Shown here: positions 23,303-56,629 of the stretch, in pieces
How positions within the stretch are numbered: the first letter of the stretch is position 1
Layout of the letters: every line of letters begins with the position of its first letter
Source of the DNA: Escherichia coli
GTDB lineage: Bacteria; Pseudomonadota; Gammaproteobacteria; Enterobacterales; Enterobacteriaceae
DNA length: 64,000 bases
NCBI RefSeq assembly: GCF_048403405.1
Contig: NZ_CP183129.1
Reading direction: 5' to 3' (one strand)
Translations under genes and position numbers: made by a program
The notes under the pieces: generated by a model
The model's database searches: none
What the model was told of the DNA's origin: nothing
What the model saw: the letters and a program-made list of their open reading frames with translations, nothing else

Positions 23303-23306
23303 TTCA

Positions 23307-24470
23307 TTACTTTTGATTGTCGATTCTGGTGAGAGCAACCAGCAATGCCAGCGTATAACACACCGTAATTGCCAGACTCATTTTTAACAGTGTTTCTCCG
23401 CCAATTCCCGACAATGGCGCGGCTATACCGCCGAAGACAAACATGCTCATCCCCATCAACGCAGACGCCGTTCCAGATTCCTGCGTCCCTACTGCACTCA
23501 TAGCCTCTGCCCCGCCAACAGTGCCGATGCCGCTACAAAATGCGATGGTGAAAAATAATGCCACCAGTGCCGGAATGGGCAATTGTATCCATGCGCATAA
23601 GACCGTGAGCAATGCACACAAAATTGCCGCTATCAGGCCACCTCGCAACAATGTCATCGCGTTAATCCGTCGCGCCAGGCGCGAGAAGATCCATGAAGCA
23701 ATGATAAGTCCGATGCCGTTAAGGCCAAACACCAGGCTAAATTGCATTGGATTAAAGCCAAATTCCTTCTGCAACACGAACGACGAAGAGCCGATATATG
23801 CAAACAAACCGGCCAGCATAAAACTTTGAATCAGGCAAAAGCGCATAAAACGGCGGTTCTGCACCACGCTTCGTCCGGTTAATAGCAATGATGAGCCCCT
23901 TTTATTTTCTGGCAAGGTCTCATTAATAAATAACAGGCAGCCCAGCAACAGTACGGTGCTAATTTCAGCCATTACCCAGAATAAAGTGCGCCAGTCAAAA
24001 GTGCTGACAATGTACCCGCCCAGCACTGGCGACAACACCGGTGCCAGGCCATTCACCGTCATTAACAGCGCAAAAAACTGGGTCAACGTTACTCCCTGAT
24101 ATTTGTCACGAGCAATAGAACGAGAGAGCACCGAACCACCCGCCCCCGCGATCCCTTGAATAAAACGCCAGACCACCAGCCAGTAAATATTGTTCGTTGT
24201 CGCGCACAAAATGGAAGAAACAATAAACAATAGCAACGACAAGATTAACGGACGTTTACGCCCTATTTTGTCGCTCAGAGGGCCAAATAACAGTTGTCCG
24301 ACGCCAAGACCGATCAGTGATGCAGTCAGCGTTAATTGCGTTATGGTCGTGGTTGCCGCCAGTTGCTCAGACATCTCCGGCAAAGCCGGCAAATAAAGAT
24401 CGGTACACATCGGGCCGATACCGGCTAAAAGACCAAGAATCAATGCCCATGAAAGAGAGACTCTAGCCAT
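23307..24470 (-). CDS. MFS drug/H+ antiporter, Bcr/CflA (DHA1) family, 12 TM
   Basis: 387-aa ORF with MFS signature region GPLSDKIGRKRP and 12 predicted TM segments; 8 bp downstream of the OMF gene. Confidence 0.8.
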   Translation of the reverse strand: MARVSLSWALILGLLAGIGPMCTDLYLPALPEMSEQLAATTTITQLTLTASLIGLGVGQLLFGPLSDKIGRKRPLILSLLLFIVSSILCATTNNIYWLVVWRFIQGIAGAGGSVLSRSIARDKYQGVTLTQFFALLMTVNGLAPVLSPVLGGYIVSTFDWRTLFWVMAEISTVLLLGCLLFINETLPENKRGSSLLLTGRSVVQNRRFMRFCLIQSFMLAGLFAYIGSSSFVLQKEFGFNPMQFSLVFGLNGIGLIIASWIFSRLARRINAMTLLRGGLIAAILCALLTVLCAWIQLPIPALVALFFTIAFCSGIGTVGGAEAMSAVGTQESGTASALMGMSMFVFGGIAAPLSGIGGETLLKMSLAITVCYTLALLVALTRIDNQK

Positions 24471-24478
24471 ATTATTCC

Positions 24479-25852
24479 TTACTTGAGTGATGACATGCCG
24501 CCGCCCAGCGACTGCCAGAGCGTGATTCGGTTTGTAAAATCAGTCAGTTGTAGTGCCAGCAGCGCCTGCTGTGCGCTCCACAAGCTGCGCTGCGCCGTCA
24601 ACACGGTCAGGTAATCACCAACACCCGCCTGATAGCGACGCAAGCCAACATCGACCGTTTGTTGCTCAGCTTTAACATACTGGCGCTGTGCATCCAGTTG
24701 CTCTTCAAGCGTGGTCCGCCGCGCCAGTGCGTTAGCGACATCTTTAAATGCGCTCTGAACGGTTTTTTCATAGGTGGCAATGAGTCCACGCTTTTGTGCT
24801 TCTGCGTAACGAAGCTGCGCCAGATTACTTCCGCCAGTGAACAGCGGTAATGTGACCGATGGCGTAAATGACCAGATCTGCATTCCGTGGCTGAACAACG
24901 ACGACAATGCTTCACTGCCAACACCAGCGCTGGCAGTCAGCGAAATCGTCGGAAAAAAGTTAGCCCGCGCCGCGCCAATATCGGCATTGGCGCTCTTCAA
25001 ATTATGTTCCGCTTCCTGGATATCCGGGCGACGCAGCAGAACGTCAGATGACACTCCCGCAGGAACCAGACTTATCATCTGTTCCGGCAGGCTTTCCAGT
25101 GTTCCCGGTAGCAAATTTTCCTCAAGCGTTGTACCTGCCAGTAAGTTCAGCGCATTTTTATCCTGCATCACTTGTGTCTGATAGCTGGCAACGCTGGCGC
25201 GCGCTTGCTGATAAACACTCATCGCCTCACTGACATCTGTCGCTGCCGCCGTGCCAACCTGTTGCTGGCGCTGGATAATTTTCAATGAGTTTTCTGCACT
25301 GGCCATCGTTTCTTTTGCCAGGGCCAGGTTGCTGTTATCAGCCGCCAGTGTCAGCCAGGCGGTGCTGATTTCAGCAATCAGCGTTAAACGAGTGTTCTGG
25401 GCTGTAAATTCACTGGCAAGCCAGGTTTCCCGCGCCGCCCGAGATAAACTCTGATTACGACCAAACAGATCTAACGTAAAACTGGACACCGTGCCGTCAG
25501 CCTCGGCAGTGGTTTCCGTACCATTCGCCAGCGAACGACTGCGGGTTGAACTTAAGGCCGCATTCACCGTCGGGAATAACGACGCATTAGTTTGCCCATA
25601 GAGCGCCCGTGCTGAGTCAATATCAGCAATCGCTTTTTGCACATCGCGGTTACTGTTCAGTGCAATAGTCACCACCTGCTGCAATCGGGGATCGTGGATC
25701 ACCTGCTGCCAGTCATGGCTGATTGCCTTTCCCTGGCCCTGTGCTCCCGGCAAGGTCGCCGGGATTGGGGATTCAGGCGTGCTGTAGTGGGGCTCGAGCG
25801 AGACACATCCCGCACTCAACAGCACCAGAAAAATAAGAGAACGACGCAACAT
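24479..25852 (-). CDS. Outer-membrane efflux lipoprotein, NodT/OprM family
   Basis: 457-aa ORF with lipoprotein signal (LLSAGC) and OprM-like outer membrane factor repeats; 3 bp downstream of the RND gene. Confidence 0.85.
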   Translation of the reverse strand: MLRRSLIFLVLLSAGCVSLEPHYSTPESPIPATLPGAQGQGKAISHDWQQVIHDPRLQQVVTIALNSNRDVQKAIADIDSARALYGQTNASLFPTVNAALSSTRSRSLANGTETTAEADGTVSSFTLDLFGRNQSLSRAARETWLASEFTAQNTRLTLIAEISTAWLTLAADNSNLALAKETMASAENSLKIIQRQQQVGTAAATDVSEAMSVYQQARASVASYQTQVMQDKNALNLLAGTTLEENLLPGTLESLPEQMISLVPAGVSSDVLLRRPDIQEAEHNLKSANADIGAARANFFPTISLTASAGVGSEALSSLFSHGMQIWSFTPSVTLPLFTGGSNLAQLRYAEAQKRGLIATYEKTVQSAFKDVANALARRTTLEEQLDAQRQYVKAEQQTVDVGLRRYQAGVGDYLTVLTAQRSLWSAQQALLALQLTDFTNRITLWQSLGGGMSSLK

Positions 25853-25855
25853 AAC

Positions 25856-28800
25856 TTACTCCTGACGGCGCGGTTTACCGGCAAACAAACGTTTCACCAG
25901 TACAAAAAACAGAGGAACAAAGAAAATAGCCAGCAACGTAGCGGTCAGCGTACCGCCAATAATGCCCGTACCAATGGCGATGCGGCTGTTCGCCCCTGCG
26001 CCGGTTGCTATCGCCAGCGGCATTACCCCCGCAATAAACGCCAGCGAGGTCATGATGATTGGGCGTAAACGAGTCTGCGCCGCGCGTAATGCCGCACGAC
26101 TCAAGGAATAGCCCTCTGCAACCGCCGCTTCAGCAAATTCCACAATCAGAATGGCGTTTTTCGACGACAAGCCGATAGTGGTTAATAGCGCCACCTGGAA
26201 GTAAACATCGTTGTTTAAATCACGCATCCAGGCCGCCAGCGCCGCGCCAAGAAGCCCCAGAGGGATCACCAGAATGACCGAGAACGGGACTGACCAGCTT
26301 TCGTACAGTGCTGCAAGGCAGAGGAAAACCACCAGAATAGAAACTGCATACAGACTCAATGCCTGACCGCTGGCCAGTTTCTCCTGCAATGACAAACCAC
26401 TCCAGGCCCAGGTTGTTCCCGCAGGAAGACTGTTTGCCAGTTCCTCCATTTTTGTCATTGCATCGCCGGAACTAAAGCCAGTCGCATTTTCCCCCTGAAT
26501 TTCATAGGCTGCAGAACCGTTGTAGCGCACCAGTCTTTCCGGTCCATACAGCCAGCGGGTGGTTGCAAAAGCAGAGAATAGTGTCATGGCGTTATCGCTA
26601 CCGCGCACAAACCATTTACCTAAGTCTGACGGCGTGGAACGAAATTCACTGTCGCCCTGAATGTAGACTTTTTTCACACGACCACGGTCAATAAAGTCAT
26701 TCACATAAGTACCGCCCCACGCACTGGACAGGGTGTCGGTGACATCATTCAAACTCAACCCTAATGACACCGCTTTATTACTATCAATATCTACCTGCAA
26801 TTGCGGCATTTGTGGCAAATCATTGGCACGCACAGAATGTAACTCCGGACTTTGATTCGCTTTTTCTATCAACTGATTACGCATTTGCAGTAGTGTTTCG
26901 CGATCGGTTCCACCGTTAGCTAACAATTCAAACGTAAAACCATTGCTTTGCCCCAGCCCATCAACGGCTGGCGGCGTCATCGCAAATACCGTGGCATCAC
27001 GAATTGTGCCCAGCTCTTTGGTTGCCCGTAGGGCGATAGCCTGGGCGGTGTTTTCTGCCCCTTTACGTTGAGACCAGTTTTTCAACGAAACAAACGCCAT
27101 CCCGGTGTTCTGTCCGCTGCCGCTAAAACTGAAACCATCAACGGTAAAAATGACATCGGTATTTGCTTTCTCATTAATCAGGAACCAGTCAACAATCTGG
27201 CGATTCACTTCTGCTGTACGGGCAGCGGTCGCCCCGGCCGGCAGCGTGTACTGCACCATGATTTCGCCCTGGTCTTCAGTGGGTAAGAAACTGCCCGGCA
27301 GTTTCCACATCATCAGGGCCATTCCACCACCCAGTACGACATAAAGCCCCATCGTTCGAGCAGCACGGCGCAGGACATAAATTACGCCTCGCTGATATTT
27401 ATCTTCAGTACGGCGGTAAAAGCGGTTAAATGCGCCGAAAAAGCCTTTTTTATGTGGCGGAACATGCTGGAGGACGGAACCGCACAGGGCGGGAGTCAAG
27501 GTCAATGCCACTACCACGGAAAGCAGCATTGCGGAGATAATGGTTATCGAAAACTGACGATAAATTACCCCCGTAGATCCCCCAAAGAAGGCCATAGGCA
27601 GGAATACGGCTGACAACACCAGCGCAATGGCAACCAGTGCGCCAGAAATCTCGCCCATTGATTTTTCCGTGGCTTCACGCGCGGGCAACCCTTCGTCACG
27701 CATAATACGTTCGACGTTCTCCACCACCACAATGGCATCGTCCACCAGCAAGCCGATCGCCAGCACCATTGCAAACAACGTCAGGGTATTAATCGAATAG
27801 CCAAACAACGCAAGAACGCCGAATGTGCCCAGCAAAACGACGGGGACAGCTAACGCCGGAATCAGTGTGGCACGCAGGTTTTGCAGGAATAAATACATCA
27901 CGCAAACCACCAATACGATGGCTTCAAACAGCGTCTGAATTACGTCCTCTACAGAGATTTTAATAAATTCAGTGCTGTCTTTCGGGTATGCGATGTCGTA
28001 TCCCTGCGGCATGTTCCGCTGGAATTCGGCAATCTTATCCTTGACCAGCGTCGCCGTATTCAGCGCATTCGCACCGGGCGAAAGCATTACAGCAACCCCG
28101 GCAGACGGGTGACCGTTAAGTTTGCCGATAGCGGTATAATCTTCACTGCCCATCTCAACGCGAGCCACATCTTTTATACGAACAACTGCGCCGTCTGACT
28201 GGCTTTTCACGATAATATTTTTGAACTGATCCACCGTCTGCAAGCGAGACTGCGCACGTACCGTTGCGGTCAGTTGCTGAGTATTCGGTGAAGGCAATGC
28301 CCCTATTTTCCCGGCAGTAACCTGCACGTTTTGCGCTTCAATAGCACTTTGCACGTCTGAAGGCATTAGCGAGTAAGACGCCAGTTTGGCCGGGTCAAGC
28401 CAGATGCGCATAGCGTATTCCGCGCCAAAGACTTGCAGACTCCCCACACCTTCAACACGCGCCAGCGGGTCCTGAACGTTACTAACCAACCAGTCGGCGA
28501 TATCCGAACTGGAGGCTTTGTCAGTGGTGTCATACACGGCAGCAATCAGCAAAAAGTTGCTTTGTGATTTCTCCACCGTAACACCCGTTTGCTGCACTTC
28601 GCTGGGTAGGCGCGACTCCGCCTGCTGAATTTTATTCTGCACCTGAACCTGTGCAGTATCTGGATCGGTACCTTGTTCAAAGGTCACATTAATACTGACC
28701 GAACCATCAGAGCTGCTGGTTGAGCTGAAATAGAGTAAATTATCAAGCCCAGTGAGTTGTTGCTCGATAACCTGAGTCACGCTGTTCTCCAGCGTTTCGG

Positions 28801-28963
28801 CAGAAGCACCAGTATAAGTGGCTGAAATTTTAATGGTCGGTGGCGCAACGTCAGGATATTGCGCGACGGGCAATGTGCGAATAGCCAGAATCCCCGCCAA
28901 CATAATCAAAATGGCGATAACCCAGGCAAAGACCGGGCGGCGAACAAAAAAGCGCGAAAACAT
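25856..28963 (-). CDS. RND multidrug efflux permease (AcrB/MexB/HAE1 family)
   Basis: 1035-aa ORF with clear similarity to AcrB/MdtF but not identical to any K-12 RND pump I can recall; 12 TM plus large periplasmic loops. Confidence 0.9.
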   Translation of the reverse strand: MFSRFFVRRPVFAWVIAILIMLAGILAIRTLPVAQYPDVAPPTIKISATYTGASAETLENSVTQVIEQQLTGLDNLLYFSSTSSSDGSVSINVTFEQGTDPDTAQVQVQNKIQQAESRLPSEVQQTGVTVEKSQSNFLLIAAVYDTTDKASSSDIADWLVSNVQDPLARVEGVGSLQVFGAEYAMRIWLDPAKLASYSLMPSDVQSAIEAQNVQVTAGKIGALPSPNTQQLTATVRAQSRLQTVDQFKNIIVKSQSDGAVVRIKDVARVEMGSEDYTAIGKLNGHPSAGVAVMLSPGANALNTATLVKDKIAEFQRNMPQGYDIAYPKDSTEFIKISVEDVIQTLFEAIVLVVCVMYLFLQNLRATLIPALAVPVVLLGTFGVLALFGYSINTLTLFAMVLAIGLLVDDAIVVVENVERIMRDEGLPAREATEKSMGEISGALVAIALVLSAVFLPMAFFGGSTGVIYRQFSITIISAMLLSVVVALTLTPALCGSVLQHVPPHKKGFFGAFNRFYRRTEDKYQRGVIYVLRRAARTMGLYVVLGGGMALMMWKLPGSFLPTEDQGEIMVQYTLPAGATAARTAEVNRQIVDWFLINEKANTDVIFTVDGFSFSGSGQNTGMAFVSLKNWSQRKGAENTAQAIALRATKELGTIRDATVFAMTPPAVDGLGQSNGFTFELLANGGTDRETLLQMRNQLIEKANQSPELHSVRANDLPQMPQLQVDIDSNKAVSLGLSLNDVTDTLSSAWGGTYVNDFIDRGRVKKVYIQGDSEFRSTPSDLGKWFVRGSDNAMTLFSAFATTRWLYGPERLVRYNGSAAYEIQGENATGFSSGDAMTKMEELANSLPAGTTWAWSGLSLQEKLASGQALSLYAVSILVVFLCLAALYESWSVPFSVILVIPLGLLGAALAAWMRDLNNDVYFQVALLTTIGLSSKNAILIVEFAEAAVAEGYSLSRAALRAAQTRLRPIIMTSLAFIAGVMPLAIATGAGANSRIAIGTGIIGGTLTATLLAIFFVPLFFVLVKRLFAGKPRRQE

Positions 28964-30084
28964 CAGGCGTTGCCTCCATTAGCCTGAACTTCAACAGCCT
29001 TGACGGTCTGCCCTGAAGTGACTTTGGCAGAACCTTCAACAATCAGTCGGTCGCCGTTGTGCAGGCCGTTCAGCACCAGCCATTTATCACCATACGTTTC
29101 TCCCGTTTCGAGCGTTCGCTGCTCTACTTTATTGTCTTTATTCACCACCAGCGCAGTTGCATTGCCTTTAGCATCGCGCGTGACGCCCTGTTGCGGCGCG
29201 AGAATAGCGTCTTCCATCACGCCTTCATCGACACGAGCGCGAACAAACATTCCCGGTAATAACTGCTGTTGTGGATTGGGGAAAATCGCCCGTAATGTCA
29301 CCGAACCGGTAGACTCATCTACAGCGACTTCGGTGAGTTCCAGACGCCCTTTTTCGCTGTAGGTTGTGCCATCTTCCAGAATAAGTGAGACGCTCATGGT
29401 GTCACTGTTGGTCGCCAGTGACTGTTTACGCAGACGTAATAAATCGACACTGGAGCGAGTGAGGTCGACATACATTGTCTCCAGACCACGAATAGTCGTT
29501 AACGCTGTATCTTGCGACGCGGTCACCAGTGCGCCAGGGGTTACCGACGAAATGCCAATTCGCCCTGAAATCGGTGCGGTTACCGTGGTCCAGTCAAGAT
29601 TAATGCGCGCAGTTTCCAGCGCGGCTTTTTTCGCCTCTACACTGGCTTTATCTTGTGCACAGGTAGACTGAGCATCATCAGCATCCTGTTGTGAAACACC
29701 GTTCTCTTTCACCAGTCGGGCATAACGCTGCGCTTTCTGGCAATCGGCTTTTACCAGTGCCTGTGCTTGTTGTAATGCTGCCCGAGCTTCATTCCATGCA
29801 GCCTGATAACTGACCGCATCAATCTGGTAGAGAGGCTGTCCAGCCTTGACCAGATCCCCTTCCTTAAATAAGCGTTTCTGGATAATTCCCCCAACCTGCG
29901 GACGTACTTCAGCACTGAGCGCAGCACTGGTGCGTCCGGTTAATTCACTGACTACCGAGACCGGTTGAGATTTGACTGTAACAACGCCGACTTCTGTTTC
30001 TGACGGGGATGAATTGTTACTTTGCGTATTATCACAACCAGATAAGAGCAGCATTGCCACTACAGATGTTGCTATATACTTCAT
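28963..30084 (-). CDS. RND efflux membrane fusion protein (periplasmic adaptor lipoprotein)
   Basis: ORF track 28963..30117; start refined to ATG 30082-30084 (373 aa) preceded by GGAG; lipobox LLSGC; AcrA/MexA-like; stop overlaps the RND start. Confidence 0.85.
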   Translation of the reverse strand: MKYIATSVVAMLLLSGCDNTQSNNSSPSETEVGVVTVKSQPVSVVSELTGRTSAALSAEVRPQVGGIIQKRLFKEGDLVKAGQPLYQIDAVSYQAAWNEARAALQQAQALVKADCQKAQRYARLVKENGVSQQDADDAQSTCAQDKASVEAKKAALETARINLDWTTVTAPISGRIGISSVTPGALVTASQDTALTTIRGLETMYVDLTRSSVDLLRLRKQSLATNSDTMSVSLILEDGTTYSEKGRLELTEVAVDESTGSVTLRAIFPNPQQQLLPGMFVRARVDEGVMEDAILAPQQGVTRDAKGNATALVVNKDNKVEQRTLETGETYGDKWLVLNGLHNGDRLIVEGSAKVTSGQTVKAVEVQANGGNA

Positions 30085-30111
30085 TATTTTCTCCAGGGTG
30101 AGAAATACCCT

Positions 30112-30131
30112 CCTCATTAAAATTAATGAGG
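30112..30131. promoter_or_regulatory. Candidate TetR-family operator upstream of the efflux operon
   Basis: Inverted repeat CCTCATTAA-aa-TTAATGAGG with perfect 9-bp arms between the TetR gene and the MFP gene; further palindromes at 30169-30184 and 30195-30212. Confidence 0.35.
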
Positions 30132-30232
30132 ATATGTCAGGGATATTCAGTTATAACGAACCCGCATCGCGAAATGAATTTCGCAATGAAATAAGGGGGA
30201 TTAATATCCCCCGCTATTGGTTAATTCTGTTC

Positions 30233-30799
30233 TTATTTATTTATCAACATACTAACAATATCCTGATATATTTCCTGCAGATGTTGTGGATCGCTTTTTT
30301 GCGGTGTTAAACGACGATAAACCGTACCTTCCATCATGGTAGCAAACACTTCAACGCAGCAACGAATGTGCTCGTCGCTAAGATGGGGATGCATTCTTTT
30401 CATATGTGCACAACCGTTAGCGAACATTCTGGCGTCAGCTTCTTCAAGCATTGCCATAACCCGCGGGTTGCGTGTGGCTTCTGCAGCCACTTCCAGCATC
30501 AGCGCGTCGTCGTCCTCATTTAAGGATTTACGCAAGGCAAGGACTTCCGGGAAGTGATCGGTACGCGCGTCAATGTCCATTTGGGCAATACGAAAGTCGA
30601 TGATACGGCGAACCATCTCTTCAATAATGGCGTCTTTGTTGGCGAAGTAACGATATATCTGACCCACGCTAAGCTGAGCTTCGCTGGCAATTTGCGACAT
30701 ACTGGCGGCATGAAACCCGCAGCGACGAAAACACCGACGGGCGGCGTTAATGATTTCATCCTGACGCTGTTTGTGGCGTATCTCCAGCTTGCTGGTCAT
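30233..30799 (-). CDS. TetR/AcrR-family transcriptional regulator
   Basis: ORF track 30233..30898; start refined to ATG 30797-30799 (188 aa) preceded by AGGAGA; N-terminal TetR HTH (SMSQIASEAQLSVGQIYRYFANKD). Confidence 0.8.
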   Translation of the reverse strand: MTSKLEIRHKQRQDEIINAARRCFRRCGFHAASMSQIASEAQLSVGQIYRYFANKDAIIEEMVRRIIDFRIAQMDIDARTDHFPEVLALRKSLNEDDDALMLEVAAEATRNPRVMAMLEEADARMFANGCAHMKRMHPHLSDEHIRCCVEVFATMMEGTVYRRLTPQKSDPQHLQEIYQDIVSMLINK

Positions 30800-48668: not shown

Positions 48669-51307
48669 TTATTTTTTCCCTTCAACCCATTTGCCATCAA
48701 CATAAAATGCTGACCAGCCAGTCGCCTTTCCGTCTTTTTCCGAAGAGACATATTGCTGTTTGGTTTTACGGCTAAAGCGAACCATGGTCTTATTACCTTC
48801 CGGATCCTGCTGTGGCGCATCGGCCAGATAACGCAGTTTTTCCGGCAGACGGTCGCGGAAGCGATAAAGCTCTTCCACCAATGGCGCGCGTGTTTCACGC
48901 GATTTCGGGAAGGTATTGGCCGCCAGGAACACACCGGCAGCACCGTCACGCAGCACGAAATAGGCATCTGATTTTTCGCACGGCAGCTCCGGTAATGGCA
49001 CCGGATCTTCCTTCGGTGGTGCCACTTCGCCGTTACGTAAAATCTTACGTGTGTTTTTACACTCTTCGTTAGTGCAGGCCATGTATTTACCGAAACGTCC
49101 CATTTTCAGGTGCATTTCAGAGCCACATTTTTCACACTCAACGATCGGGCCGTCATAACCTTTAATGCGGAATTCGCCCTCTTCGATCTCGTAACCGTCG
49201 CAGGTTGGGTTATTACCACAGACATGCAACTTACGTTTCGGATCGATGAGATAGCTGTCCATCGCCGTGCCGCATTTCGGGCAACGACGTTTTGCGCGCA
49301 GCGCGTTGGTTTCAGCGTCTTCACCTTCCAGCACGTTCAGCACTTCGTTTTCCGGCACCAGGTTGATGGTGGTTTTGCAACGCTCTTTCGGTGGCAGAGC
49401 GTAGCCGGAACAGCCAAGGAATACCCCGGTGCTCGCTGTGCGAATACCCATTTTGCGACCACAGGTCGGGCAGTCGATGCTGGTCAGAACCATCTGGTTC
49501 GGGCGCATCCCCCCTCTTCCGGATCTTTTTCAGCTTTATCTAACTGCTGGGTGAAATCCGAGAAGAAGTGATCCAGTACAGCTTTCCACTCTGCTTCGTG
49601 ATTTGCCACCTGGTCGAGGCTGTTTTCCATCTGTGCGGTGAAGTCGTAGTTCATTAACTCACGGAAATTCTCTTCCAGGCGATCGGTGACGATTTCGCCC
49701 ATTTTTTCCGCATAGAAACGACGATTTTCTACTCGCACATAGCCACGATCCTGAATGGTCGAAATGATCGACGCATAGGTAGACGGACGACCGATACCGC
49801 GTTTTTCCAGCTCTTTAACCAGCGATGCTTCACTAAAACGGGCTGGCGGCTTGGTAAAGTGCTGGGCTGGTGTCAGTTCAACGAGCGTCAGAGCATCGCC
49901 TTTATCGACTGCCGGTAATATACGATCTTCATCGCCTTTACGCAGTGCAGGCATCACTTTTGTCCAGCCATCAAAGCGCAAAATACGACCGCGTGCTTTC
50001 AGGCGGAAATCGCCCGCACCAACGGTCAGCGTCGTGGAGTCATATTTCGCTGGGGTCATCTGGCAGGCAACGAACTGACGCCAGATTAACTGGTACAATT
50101 TTTGCGCATCTGCTTCCATATCCTTCAACGATTCCGCCATCACATTGACGTCAGAAGGACGAATCGCTTCGTGCGCTTCCTGTGAGTTTTCTTTGCTGGC
50201 GTACTGATTCGGACTTTCCGGCAGATATTTCTTACCAAAATTATCGCTGATATAACCGCGAACCATATTTACCGCGTCCTGACTCAGGTTGGTGGAGTCG
50301 GTACGCATGTAAGTGATATAGCCTGCTTCATACAAACGCTGCGCCATCATCATGGTTTTTTTCACGCCAAAACCAAGACGGGTGCTGGCAGCTTGTTGCA
50401 GCGTAGAGGTAATAAAAGGAGCGCCAGGTTTACTGGTTGTCGGTTTGTCTTCACGTTCCAGCACGCTGTAGCGCGCTTTTTCCAGCAGACTTACCGCAGC
50501 CTGTGTTTGTTCTTTGTTGACCGGGCGGAACGGTTTGTCGTTCTGATGAGTCACCTGCAACGCCAACGCATCACCAGATGGCGTGGTCGTGCTGGCATCG
50601 ACTTCCCAGAACTCTTCCGGTACGAACGCTTTAATTTCACGCTCACGCTCGACCACCAGGCGGACCGCCACCGACTGCACACGACCTGCAGACAGACCAC
50701 GAGCGATCTTTTTCCACAGCAGCGGCGAAACCATATATCCCACCACGCGGTCCATAAAGCGACGCGCCTGCTGGGCATTAACACGATCAATATTCAGCTC
50801 ACCTGGTTTGTTAAATGCCTGGCGGATCGCGTTTTTAGTAATTTCGTTAAACACCACTCGGCTATAGCGCGCATCATCACCACCAATCACTTCCCGCAGG
50901 TGCCATGCAATGGCTTCCCCTTCGCGGTCAAGGTCGGTTGCGAGATAGATGTGGTCGGCTTTTTCAGCCAGTTGTTTCAGTTCAGAGACGACCTTCTCTT
51001 TACCAGGCAACACTTCATAGTGCGCCTCCCAATTGTGCCACGGGTCAACCCCCATACGGTTGACGAGAGCGCCACGTTCATCCTTTTTAGGCTTTTTAGC
51101 CGTCTTGGTGGAGGTAGAGTCGGCACTCTTTTTGGCAGCTGAGCCACTGGTCGGCAAATCGCGGATGTGACCGACGCTGGATTTCACCACGTAGTCACTA
51201 CCCAGATACTTGTTGATCGTTTTGGCTTTTGCCGGGGACTCAACGATGACAAGAGCTTTACCCATATTCACCTTACCTAATTTGATTCTTCCAGGAATGC
51301 GTCGCAC
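48669..51307 (-). pseudogene. topA: DNA topoisomerase I, reading frame interrupted by an apparent single-nucleotide frameshift
   Basis: Two adjacent minus-strand ORFs (49484..51307, 607 aa with the TOPRIM/catalytic core; 48669..49508, 279 aa with the Zn-ribbon C-terminal region) overlap in different frames at a C6 run (49509-49514). Could be a genuine mutation or an assembly error. Confidence 0.7.
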
Positions 51308-51644
51308 GTTGATAAACCTTCCACTGGCAACGAGTTACCGATATGGACTCGCTCTCTGCGGATATCAACCCCTTGTCGTGACTCTGTTCACGAAAATTCA
51401 GGTGACTGAGTTAACAGGTCTTGGCCTACAGGCGCTATAGCACGACGGAATTTTGGTCGAATGTCAAGCAAATCTATTGCCAGATTGACGAAAGCGTCAC
51501 ACTGTACCTGATAAAATCCGATACGCAACTTTATTAGCATGCAAAATCCAAAGTTGCCAGTAAGGCGCTCTTGCCACCAGCGTGGTATATTTGTCTGCAA
51601 GCCATGCCTGGCGTAGACTAATGTCCTTGTTTAAGGAGTAAATA

Positions 51645-51896
51645 ATGAACAAAGAGACACAACCCATCGACCGCGAGACGCTGTTGAAAGAGGCCAACAA
51701 AATCATTCGTGAGCATGAGGATACGCTCGCAGGGATTGAAGCCACCGGCGTCACGCAGCGTAATGGCGTGCTGGTATTTACCGGCGACTACTTTTTAGAT
51801 GAACAAGGATTGCCAACAGCCAAAAGCACCGCGGTGTTTAATATGTTCAAACACCTGGCCCATGTGCTTTCAGAAAAATATCATCTGGTTGATTAA
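51645..51896 (+). CDS. yciN: Small conserved protein YciN
   Basis: 83-aa ORF; synteny next to topA. Confidence 0.85.
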
Positions 51897-51936
51897 ATAA
51901 ATATCCTCCGGCATAGCCGGAGGTTTTTCAAATGCG

Positions 51937-52640
51937 CCTATAAGGCTCTCTTACCAGCCGCGCCCTAACAGGCGCACACGATCTGACATTTGCATCCAAC
52001 TTCGTTACTTACGGCCCGTAAACGGGCTGCCCGGATAGGGAATCGATAACTGCTCTCCCATTTTATCCTCTTCAAGCTGGTGCTTTATGTAATCCTGTAT
52101 CTTCGCCGTGTTCTTACCCACCGTATCGACGTAGTACCCTCTGCACCAGAACTCCCTGTTCCTGTATTTGAATTTCAAATCACCAAACTGCTCGTAAAGC
52201 ATCAGACTGCTTTTCCCTTTCAGATATCCCATAAAGCCGGATACGCTCATTTTGGGCGGGATCTCCACAAGCATATGGATATGATCTGCACAGCATTCAG
52301 CTTCCAGAATCCGTACACTTTTCCACTCACACAGCTTTCTCAAAATACTGCCTATTGCTCTACGCTTCTCTCTGTAGAACACCTGTCTTCGGTATTTTGG
52401 CGCAAAAACTATGTGATATTTACAGTTCCATCGGGTGTGCGCTAAGCTCTTTTCGTTCCCCATTGGGACCCCCTTTTGATTTCTTGTTTGACACTTGCAG
52501 TTGCCAGACCGCAAGGTGTTTTAACAAATCAAAAGGGGTTTTAATAACTGGCTTAAAGCTGAAAGCTTTCCGGAACCCCCAGCCTAGCTGGGGGTTTTCT
52601 GTGCACAAACAAAACGCGAGGTCTTAGCCTCGCGTTTGTC
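51937..52640 (-). mobile_element. IS200-like insertion sequence (IS200/IS605 family), approximate boundaries
   Basis: Contains a Y1 transposase gene plus the characteristic stem-loops (52576-52596 and 52611-52636); not present between yciN and sohB in K-12. Ends estimated from the expected ~0.7 kb size. Confidence 0.7.
52005..52463 (-). CDS. tnpA: IS200 transposase TnpA (HUH Y1 transposase)
   Basis: ORF track 52005..52514; start refined to ATG 52461-52463 (152 aa MGNEKSLAHTRWNCKYHIVFAPKYRR...), HxH motif (HIHMLVEIPP). Confidence 0.85.
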   Translation of the reverse strand: MGNEKSLAHTRWNCKYHIVFAPKYRRQVFYREKRRAIGSILRKLCEWKSVRILEAECCADHIHMLVEIPPKMSVSGFMGYLKGKSSLMLYEQFGDLKFKYRNREFWCRGYYVDTVGKNTAKIQDYIKHQLEEDKMGEQLSIPYPGSPFTGRK

Positions 52641-52642
52641 TT

Positions 52643-53692
52643 TTACATCAATGGTTTTTGCCCCCGCTGCCACCAGCGTAACAACAATCGATCGGCGCTC
52701 TCTGCCGCGCTGCCGGTGAATCGGTCAATGAGTCGTTTACGCTGCATATAGCGTACATTGACCACTTCACGGCCTTCCATCAGGCTAAGAATAACTTCAT
52801 CACTGGTGTTGATTTCATCAACCAGGCCTTTCTCTACCGCCTGTTGTCCGTACCAGTGTTCACCCGTTGCCACCTGATCAATATTCAGAGACGGACGCAT
52901 ACGCTTCACAAAATCTTTAAATAACTGATGCGTTTCGTTCAGCTCTTCGCGGAATTTCTCCCGCCCTTCTTCGGTGTTTTCACCCAGCAAAGTCAGCGTG
53001 CGCTTATACTGCCCGGCGGTGTGCAGTTCGATATCAATATCTTTGCTTTTCAGGAAGCGGTTAAAGTTGGGCATTTGTGCCACCACGCCAATGGAACCCA
53101 CAATAGCAAACGGTGCGGAAACAATTTTGTCCGCCACACAGGCCATCATGTAACCGCCACTGGCAGCAACTTTGTCTACCGTAACAGTTAAAGGAATGTT
53201 TTTATCACGCAGACGCTGCAGCTGCGAAGCCGCCAGCCCGTAACCATGCACCATGCCACCAGGGCTTTCCAGACGTAGCACAACCTGATCCTGCGGTTTG
53301 AATGCTGCGAGTACCGCCGTTATCTCTTCACGTAGCGAGTTCACTTCATGGGCGTCCATGCTGCCTTTAAAATCCAGCACCCAGACGCGAGGTTTACTGT
53401 CAGTTGCCACCTCGCCCAGTTTGGCTTTCGCTTTTGCTGCTTTCGCTTCTTGCTTGTGCTTTTTCTTCTGCGCTTTGTGCCACTGTTTTTGCTGATGTGA
53501 GTCCATCAGCGCCGCGGCCAGTTCTTCTTTCATCTCCTTATACTGTTCGCTGAGATTGTTGACCCGTAACTCGCCACGCTGGCGTTTATTACGTTGAGCA
53601 ACATTGACAATAATGGCGGCAATCGCCGCAATCGCTAGCACAACGGTAACGATTTTCGCCAAAAACAAACCATATTCAGACAACAATTCCAC
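52643..53692 (-). CDS. sohB: Inner-membrane peptidase SohB (S49 family)
   Basis: 349-aa ORF with N-terminal TM and ClpP/S49 peptidase domain. Confidence 0.9.
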   Translation of the reverse strand: MELLSEYGLFLAKIVTVVLAIAAIAAIIVNVAQRNKRQRGELRVNNLSEQYKEMKEELAAALMDSHQQKQWHKAQKKKHKQEAKAAKAKAKLGEVATDSKPRVWVLDFKGSMDAHEVNSLREEITAVLAAFKPQDQVVLRLESPGGMVHGYGLAASQLQRLRDKNIPLTVTVDKVAASGGYMMACVADKIVSAPFAIVGSIGVVAQMPNFNRFLKSKDIDIELHTAGQYKRTLTLLGENTEEGREKFREELNETHQLFKDFVKRMRPSLNIDQVATGEHWYGQQAVEKGLVDEINTSDEVILSLMEGREVVNVRYMQRKRLIDRFTGSAAESADRLLLRWWQRGQKPLM

Positions 53693-55308: not shown

Positions 55309-55617
55309 TCAAGCGGCAATAGCGAAATTCAGAATACGTGTAATCTCATTCAAATGTCCCGGATATGCTTCATGATTCTCAGCGTCAACATCTTCAATAA
55401 ATAATATCAGTTCAGTAATTAACGCATTAGCATCGTCATAATTTATCCCGGCTAACTCTGGCGAAGTTTCAGTACCATAGTTAATCGTCAGGTTGTTCAT
55501 AACTGTGAGGATATGGATAAAATATTTATGACAAACATTACATGTGGTTTTATTACCCAAAGTATTATACAGCATATCAAGTAATGCCAATATTCTACGG
55601 TTTTGCACATCGTTCAT
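55309..55617 (-). CDS. Hypothetical small acidic cytoplasmic protein (102 aa), function unknown
   Basis: ORF with ATG start 6 nt after an AGGAGG Shine-Dalgarno that overlaps the stop of the upstream lipoprotein gene; AT-rich; no family recognised. Confidence 0.6.
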   Translation of the reverse strand: MNDVQNRRILALLDMLYNTLGNKTTCNVCHKYFIHILTVMNNLTINYGTETSPELAGINYDDANALITELILFIEDVDAENHEAYPGHLNEITRILNFAIAA

Positions 55618-55627
55618 AAAAAGCCTC

Positions 55628-56629
55628 CTATAACATTATTCCGCTGGCAATAAGTAATTTTGCCAGCCCCTCAGACGCCTTTAACCCACTAATGACCTGT
55701 GCGCGTAATATTTCATTTAATCTTTTTTGTTCAGCTGCCGTGCGTGTTTTATTAACGTATAAGCTTTTTAGATAATCACCCTTATCTATAAAGGCATTTA
55801 AAGCCTCAATCGCAGGCATGGCAGGTGCCGATGCCTGTAGTCTGGTTTCATTCACATTGATTACTGAACTTAGAAACTCCTTCCTGTTTTTCAGAGTGTT
55901 AAACTCTGTATTCTTAGAGTTTTTAGATGCTGTATTATAATAAAACATATTATCATGCACATTCGCAAAGGTATAATTTTCAATCTTATTGCTTTTTGTA
56001 TAAATATCATTGCGCAAAACCGCCATGTTCTTTATAAGTCTTACCCAGTTTTCATCTGCCGTTTTGCCTATTTTTCCAGAATTGACTTTAATTATATATA
56101 ACTCATTGAAATAATTTACCAAATCTTTAACCGCTGCTGCAGATTGAGCTAAATCTTTGCTATGTGAAACACCAAGTAGTGTTTGTGCGTTGTTTGCGTG
56201 ATCCAGAGCCTGTTTAAGTAATGCCACTTGCTGACTTTCCGTAGTTGCCATATCCTTTGTCAGAAGTTCCACATAAGCGCTCATGCTATTAATGACTTCC
56301 ATTGAAGCCAGTAATTTTTCTTTCTCGAAAGGGACTAATTGTACTTGTTTTGTATTTGGCCCTGAACGCTGGCATAATTTTCCGCCATTCCCATCACCGC
56401 CTATATCAATGGTATAATCAGGTCGCAATGCACAATCCGGATTAGTCGCGTAGAAATTAACAAGGAAGTTTTCACGAGAAGCATAGTATTGTTTAAAGAA
56501 ACTTGCATTCGCCGCTACTGCTTTGTTACCCGCAGTAATAACAGTTTCAGCTTGTTCGTTTTTCAATGCTTCAGTTGCACAACCTGAAAGCATTAACAGC
56601 GATAGAAATATTCCACTATATCTAATCAT
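55628..56629 (-). CDS. Hypothetical lipoprotein (333 aa), function unknown
   Basis: ATG start with SD GAGGTG; signal peptide plus lipobox LMLSGC (Cys17); N/K-rich, AT-rich coding sequence; no family recognised. Confidence 0.65.
   Translation of the reverse strand: MIRYSGIFLSLLMLSGCATEALKNEQAETVITAGNKAVAANASFFKQYYASRENFLVNFYATNPDCALRPDYTIDIGGDGNGGKLCQRSGPNTKQVQLVPFEKEKLLASMEVINSMSAYVELLTKDMATTESQQVALLKQALDHANNAQTLLGVSHSKDLAQSAAAVKDLVNYFNELYIIKVNSGKIGKTADENWVRLIKNMAVLRNDIYTKSNKIENYTFANVHDNMFYYNTASKNSKNTEFNTLKNRKEFLSSVINVNETRLQASAPAMPAIEALNAFIDKGDYLKSLYVNKTRTAAEQKRLNEILRAQVISGLKASEGLAKLLIASGIML

Follow-up and report, generated by a model that had tools for sequence, protein, structure and literature searches.

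An IS200C insertion element at the sohB terminator between yciN and sohB of Escherichia coli

Introduction

The element investigated in this study belongs to a group of related insertion sequences of which IS608 from Helicobacter pylori and ISDra2 from Deinococcus provide references for the mechanism of transposition. Both encode a TnpA that is homologous to the transposase found here and they share with our element the presence of subterminal hairpins, the lack of a target duplication and the residence on the lagging-strand template, an orientation that was reported for the IS200/IS605 family (PMC5027513). In contrast to these two elements, which rely on a fixed tetra- or pentanucleotide target such as TTAC, the IS200C copy described below is found at a hairpin followed by a T-tract and it does not carry tnpB. 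[quoted passage not shown]

Here, we have analysed a window of 64,000 nucleotides from an Escherichia coli chromosome (contig NZ_CP183129.1), for which a first-pass annotation had proposed an IS200-like element inserted between yciN and sohB. Our comparisons leave little doubt that positions 51898-52608 constitute one complete and apparently functional copy of IS200C, which represents the IS200 group (IS200/IS605 family) in E. coli and whose name rests on the RefSeq/PGAP annotation. The copy is already known, since it is annotated in RefSeq at the exact site in 118 complete genomes, and the insertion itself matters little. In practice, its presence or absence can mark one E. coli clade and its structure illustrates clearly how an IS200 element is built, and the landing of this group of elements in the T-tract of terminators may interest the field of single-strand transposition.

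Results

Boundaries of the element

The ends of the element were set by comparison to empty sites (in K-12, strain S1-ZIM-01-A and others) and to five other copies residing in unrelated contexts, of which three stem from E. coli records while the remaining two are Yersinia IS1541. In all five aligned copies, the similarity starts at TAAATATCC and stops at GCACAA. The window reads GATTAAA, followed by the element TAAATATCC ... CTGTGCACAA and by ACAAAACGCGAGG, and both types of comparison converge on a unit of 711 bp with its left end (LE) at 52608 and its right end (RE) at 51898 (Table 1). The initial bounds of 51937-52640 thus proved to be wrong at both ends, and they omit 39 bp at the start of the element, in which the RE hairpin is located. 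When 5426 complete E. coli genomes were searched by megablast with the region 51400-53100, the whole stretch was recovered from 118 of them, and in essentially all others the two flanks are joined and the site is shorter by the same 711 bp. In K-12 MG1655, sohB and yciN are separated by a gap of 35 nt with the intergenic sequence GATTAAAGCAAAACGCGAGGTCTTAGCCTCGCGTTTGTC. This gap contains no transposase, which agrees with the earlier statement that the element is absent from the K-12 site. A host gene that fills the interval by vertical descent throughout E. coli is contradicted by more than 5000 empty sites. The assignment is not a product of chance, as the motif of the LE hairpin has zero expected matches in shuffled sequence and as annotated RefSeq genomes match the locus at 100% identity.

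The insertion has left no target-site duplication, since the empty site GATTAAAACAAAACG equals the sum of the left and right flanks, and the apparent TT/AA repeat at the junction is the T-tract itself. Terminal inverted repeats are equally absent, the ends of the element not being complementary. On the top strand, a TT flanks RE in 72 of 72 copies among the matches listed. These bases are identical to the first two of LE and thus permit a shift of the register by up to 2 nt, which makes 51896-52606 equally compatible with the data and leaves the exact cleavage positions, as far as they can be read from sequence alone, ambiguous by 2 nt. As an alternative description of the event, we have considered a 712-bp element accompanied by a 1-nt deletion, which would account for a G-to-A difference at the junction between K-12 (TTAAAGCAAAACG) and the joined flanks of the window (TTAAAACAAAACG). 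Since the empty site carrying the A-allele, represented by the joined flanks GATTAAAACAAAACGCG, is matched exactly in 15 other genomes, the event is more simply read as insertion of a 711-bp unit into this allele without further change, and the 712-bp version was rejected.

Table 1. Features of the yciN-sohB interval in the window (nt, nucleotide of the element counted from 52608 as nt 1).
Feature	Position	Strand	Description
yciN	51645-51896	plus	intact; stop codon 51894-51896; element begins 1 nt later
Complete IS200C element	51898-52608	minus	711 bp; LE at 52608, RE at 51898
RE subterminal hairpin	51905-51923		8-bp stem, then TTTTT on plus strand
Second imperfect inverted repeat in RE	51933-51976		between tnpA stop and RE hairpin; 13-nt arms, 85% complementary
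tnpA	52005-52463	minus	ATG-initiated open reading frame, 152 aa, Y1/HUH transposase, begins MGNEKSLAHTRWNCKYHIVF
Candidate art200 promoter	-35 TTTACA 52419-52424; weak -10 near 52442-52448	plus	hexamers read from sequence, inferred
Predicted art200 antisense RNA	52455-52544	plus	about 90 nt, complementary to tnpA 5' UTR and first three codons; Salmonella coordinates transferred
tnpA 5' UTR stem-loop	52470-52538	minus	IS nt 71-139; RNA fold z = -4.6, inverted repeat
Rfam RF01405 match (STnc490, Hfq-binding RNA of IS200)	52473-52596	minus	146.1 bits, gathering score 56, E = 2.4e-31, full model 1-124
LE subterminal hairpin	52574-52596	minus	IS nt 13-35, perfect 10-bp stem, -11.7 kcal/mol
Host bidirectional sohB/yciN terminator hairpin	52612-52637	both	outside element; in K-12 and other empty sites
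sohB	52643-53692	minus	intact; stop codon 52643-52645, 34 nt from LE

The transposase

Within the 711-bp unit, tnpA is the sole open reading frame of the size of a transposase, and the 107 bp that separate its stop codon from the end of RE hold no further one. This compactness bears on the question of whether the element could instead be a unit of the IS605/IS608 type, containing tnpB and a guide RNA besides tnpA, or a truncated remnant. Such an assignment would be in line with the membership in the same family and with the homology of TnpA; it conflicts with the small size of a unit carrying a single open reading frame, with the lack of a tnpB-sized open reading frame in or beside the element on the map of reading frames, and with the fact that both ends are common to full-length copies of IS200C and IS1541, which measure 709-711 bp. 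The proposal is refuted already by the map and by the conserved ends, and we assign it a negligible probability.

The properties of the encoded protein place it firmly among IS200 transposases. It is matched over the whole domain by the Pfam family Y1_Tnp (PF01797, E = 3.8e-38, 130.7 bits at a cut-off of 23) and it scores 147.7 bits against the NCBIfam equivalog transpos_IS200 (NF033573), whose cut-off is 55. The HUH motif, in form of the sequence H-I-H, comprises residues 61-63 and the catalytic tyrosine is residue 125. Homologues of known structure include the Y1 transposases 2a6m (ISHp608/IS608, E = 3.9e-19) and 2xm3 (E = 1.9e-16), the latter of which we take to be TnpA of ISDra2, and the DHIH motif and the C-terminal tyrosine in the arrangement Y-x-x-x-Q could be aligned with the archaeal transposases 2ec2 and 2f4f. 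The description of the gene as a minus-strand HUH/Y1 transposase of 152 aa, which was part of the first-pass annotation, is therefore borne out by the map of open reading frames, by Pfam and NCBIfam and by the homology to solved TnpA structures. Its likeness to TnpA of IS200, which had been proposed there as well, is now documented by the transpos_IS200 score and by an identical RefSeq protein (WP_000526135.1), annotated as "IS200/IS605-like element IS200C family transposase".

We have also considered whether the open reading frame could be a host gene encoding a domesticated REP-associated tyrosine transposase (RAYT or TnpA_REP). The same fold family and a weak match to the NCBIfam model REP_Tyr_transpos (NF047646; 32.2 bits, E = 8.5e-08) would be compatible with this idea, although the score lies far below the cut-off of 80 of this model and contrasts with the strong match to transpos_IS200. 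Moreover, the gene is part of a discrete 711-bp unit that most genomes lack at this site and that occurs many times at other places, and it is flanked by LE and RE hairpins of the IS200 type instead of REP/BIME arrays. The domesticated host gene is already refuted by the score below the curated cut-off, by the polymorphism of the insertion and by the presence of multiple copies, and we see hardly any chance for it to be correct.

A comparison with known relatives underlines the assignment to IS200C. Relative to RefSeq-annotated copies of this element, which share the identical protein, the length of 711 bp and the T-rich site, no difference was detectable. The comparison with Salmonella IS200 was made through the Rfam model and the published coordinates (PMC4513863); our copy is 4 bp longer than the 707 bp of that element, with which it shares a Y1 transposase of 152 aa, the position of Tyr125, the Shine-Dalgarno sequence and the STnc490/art200 segment, and the two regulatory hairpins are shifted by only one or two nucleotides (nt 12-34 compared to 13-35 for the LE hairpin and nt 69-138 compared to 71-139 for the stem-loop preceding tnpA). 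IS1541 from Yersinia pestis and Y. pseudotuberculosis is 87.5% identical over the full length, corresponding to a divergence of about 12%, with an identical LE hairpin, a near-identical RE end and the same preference for a terminator and its T-tract as target. Its copy number in Y. pestis is much higher, a single genome containing at least about 70 distinct insertions. A copy from Citrobacter amalonaticus shows a full-length identity of 92.5% to the element of the window.

Among the matches listed, Serratia sp. Ag1 contains ten copies of 430 bp that lack tnpA (loci L082-L091). These combine an IS200-type RE (131 nt, 90%) with a corresponding LE (50 nt, 94%) and look like a non-autonomous, MITE-like derivative.

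Hairpins and regulatory segments

Of the two stem-loops that had been noted on the 5' side of tnpA, the one at 52576-52596 is part of the element and corresponds to the LE hairpin with its perfect 10-bp stem (52574-52596), whereas the other, at 52611-52636, is the terminator of the host and is found unchanged in K-12 and other empty sites. By analogy to IS200, the LE hairpin is expected to act as bidirectional rho-independent terminator that would block incoming transcription, and in its form on the top strand it is presumed to double as binding structure for TnpA, as in the IS200/IS605 family. All aligned copies, those of Yersinia IS1541 among them, retain the RE hairpin. The LE hairpin (52576-52598) and the RE hairpin (51905-51927) form a direct repeat with 78% identity over 23 nt, and both fold stably. 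Their relationship in direct orientation is the arrangement expected of a transposase for which both ends are substrates on the same strand. A match of the RE hairpin to the Rfam family Ysr202 (27.9 bits at a gathering score of 315) was discarded as generic terminator-like similarity.

The segment between LE and tnpA carries the remaining features known from Salmonella IS200. The ATG of tnpA is located at IS nt 146 (with 52608 as nt 1), and the preceding Shine-Dalgarno sequence AAGGGGGU (52468-52475) is paired within the predicted 5' UTR stem-loop. The match to RF01405 spans both the LE hairpin and this stem-loop, and the sequence of the STnc490 segment hardly deviates from the Rfam consensus. 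The match is found on the tnpA-sense strand, while STnc490/art200 was described to be antisense to the tnpA 5' UTR (PMC4513863), and it thus marks the segment and not the transcript. It is possible that the model stands for the sense 5'tnpA RNA or that its orientation differs from that of the published transcript. A promoter scan of 51300-53000 called no sigma-70-like site, a result that is no evidence of silence and that agrees with the weak and undefined tnpA promoter in the literature.

Target sites and strand

To place the target of the window copy in a broader context, exact matches to the LE hairpin were collected in a scan covering one genome per species, which retrieved at least 120 stretches from Yersinia, Serratia, Brenneria, Citrobacter, Kluyvera, Pectobacterium, Vibrio and other genera outside Salmonella and Escherichia. 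A flank was counted as containing a hairpin if a perfect stem of at least 6 bp ended no more than 8 nt from the junction. Among the matches listed, such a hairpin was present in the top-strand DNA just 5' of LE in 92 of 112 unique insertions (82%), which are distributed over more than 15 genera, and in 42 of 45 insertions outside Y. pestis, compared to 2 of 72 mirrored flanks at RE and 107 of 2000 random 50-mers (5%). In the same set, a T is found at each of positions -4 to -2 before LE in 84-99% of copies, and the last 35 nt before LE show a mean fold energy of -16.7 kcal/mol compared to -5.4 kcal/mol for random sequences. In the 5' flanks of LE (loci L010-L129), the GC-rich hairpin followed by a run of T has the form of an intrinsic terminator. 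The T-tract of intrinsic terminators is thus almost always the target of IS200-group elements, and the copy of the window fits this pattern, with the sohB terminator being followed by TTTTGT and then by LE. In light of the published T-rich sites and the excess of terminators, the target pattern as such is not new.

[quoted passage not shown] These dimers can either reflect the use of the element's own RE as target or constitute retained tandems resembling a circle junction.

The target pattern raises the question of how the site is selected. One possible answer, which we put forward tentatively and with somewhat more doubt than confidence, is that transposases of the IS200 group choose the site by its structure, with the hairpin and T-tract of a host intrinsic terminator being recognized in single-stranded form as stand-in for the RE of the element. 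This proposal draws support from the 82% of 112 independent insertions that abut a terminator and from the Y. pestis dimers, where RE, itself a hairpin with a T-rich tail, would have been used as target. If true, it would explain the harmlessness and the persistence of IS200 and it would distinguish the group from IS608 and ISDra2 with their fixed-sequence targets. Only this mechanism, the target as surrogate RE, would in this case be novel, as the excess of terminators at the level of the family is already contained in the preprint (10.1101/2025.07.22.666184).

Distribution and recent movement

The first-pass annotation had regarded the insertion as a strain marker. Among the 5426 complete E. 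coli genomes, only 118 have the site filled, which confirms its value as marker of a strain or lineage. The accompanying claim that IS200 occurs only in some E. coli lineages is correct insofar as the element is not universal; its wording is loose, since IS200C is detected at a coverage of at least 80% in 2063 of the 5426 genomes, or about 38%. The clade with the filled site presumably belongs to phylogroup D and includes relatives of ST405. Two of the filled strains were used in an ST405-centred comparison (PMC9037040). Six filled genomes match the window over 1.1 kb at 100% identity, compared to 99.5% for the remaining rows listed, which defines two flank haplotypes among the filled genomes.

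The number of matching places per genome, with partial copies counted, reaches 35 overall and ranges from 11 to 35 in genomes carrying the yciN-sohB insertion, and the window itself contains a single copy. Strain TUM14771, whose alignment with the window over 49.6 kb shows 4 SNPs and 1 indel, contains 11 matching places in all, among them a copy at another locus with 100% identity. The presence of an identical copy elsewhere in a near-identical genome points to recent movement in the lineage.

This finding is relevant for an alternative in which the element would be a fixed, immobile relic that contributes RNAs (the 5'tnpA sRNA and art200) instead of transposition. Such a role would be consistent with the very rare transposition of IS200 and with the regulation of Salmonella genes by RNA derived from its 5' UTR (PMC4513863, PMC5435999, bioRxiv 10.1101/2024.06.26.600842). 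The near-identity of the STnc490 segment to the Rfam consensus and the stability of the insertion in 118 genomes with two flank haplotypes would equally suit a relic. To our knowledge, there are no E. coli targets of IS200 sRNAs. We consider immobility improbable in view of the intact open reading frame and ends, of 100% identical copies at other loci in near-identical genomes and of the 11-35 matching places among carriers, which, with partial copies included, point to recent transposition. A contribution of RNAs is nevertheless compatible with the functional IS200C copy that we favour.

Consequences for the neighbouring genes

The genes yciN and sohB are convergent and both reading frames are untouched by the insertion, with the same YciN accession (WP_001031530.1) being annotated at filled and empty sites alike. 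The element had been described as abutting the stop codon of sohB, which turned out to be incorrect, since the sohB terminator is located between the stop codon and LE. This terminator has a fold energy of -11.8 kcal/mol (z = -5.5) and is called on both strands by a terminator scan. Its hairpin and T-tract form the insertion target that adjoins LE. On the opposite side, the same scan indicates that yciN now meets the RE hairpin and its TTTTT, starting from 9 nt past its stop codon, and the RE hairpin thus looks like a terminator for this gene. With the sohB terminator kept upstream of the element, a terminator-like hairpin provided to yciN by RE and both frames preserved, a polar effect on neighbouring genes, as suggested in the first-pass annotation, appears unlikely and, with the corrected ends, it should not be assumed.

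Proposed course of insertion and silencing

The observed anatomy, homology, ends, polymorphism, target pattern and strand of the element can be combined with transposition chemistry and regulation adopted from the family literature into the following scenario. By analogy to IS608 and ISDra2, TnpA would bind the similar hairpins close to both ends of the top strand, which is the minus strand of the window, and excise this strand as a single-stranded circle. The circle would then be pasted into single-stranded target DNA at the replication fork in a process termed 'peel and paste', which would leave neither terminal inverted repeats nor a target duplication. In the present case, the copy landed in the T-tract just past the hairpin of the sohB terminator, with LE facing the terminator. 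The expression of tnpA would be kept very low by the LE terminator hairpin, the weak promoter, the stem-loop hiding the Shine-Dalgarno sequence and art200 together with Hfq, as described for related elements. The insertion leaves all genes undisrupted and should thus be nearly neutral, and through its vertical inheritance in one E. coli clade it marks the lineage.

Other features of the window

Three further features of the window concern regions outside the element. On the minus strand, topA is split into two open reading frames (49484-51307 and 48669-49508) by a 1-nt deletion in a homopolymer at 49508-49514, which contains six C in the window and seven in TUM14771, where topA encodes an intact protein of 865 aa. 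This deletion is the only indel in the 49.6 kb alignment with TUM14771, beside the 4 SNPs, and it may reflect an error in sequencing or assembly, unless the C-terminal domains of topoisomerase I are indeed truncated. The interval between cobO/btuR and rluB, which measures about 40 bp in K-12, contains two hypothetical genes on the minus strand at 55309-55617 (102 aa) and about 55628-56629 (about 333 aa), which constitute a small strain-specific insertion. Finally, the interval between fabI and sapF (about 23305-30797) encodes, according to the annotation of TUM14771, a TetR regulator, an RND adaptor, an RND pump, an outer-membrane factor and an MFS transporter, a cluster that is presumably absent from K-12.
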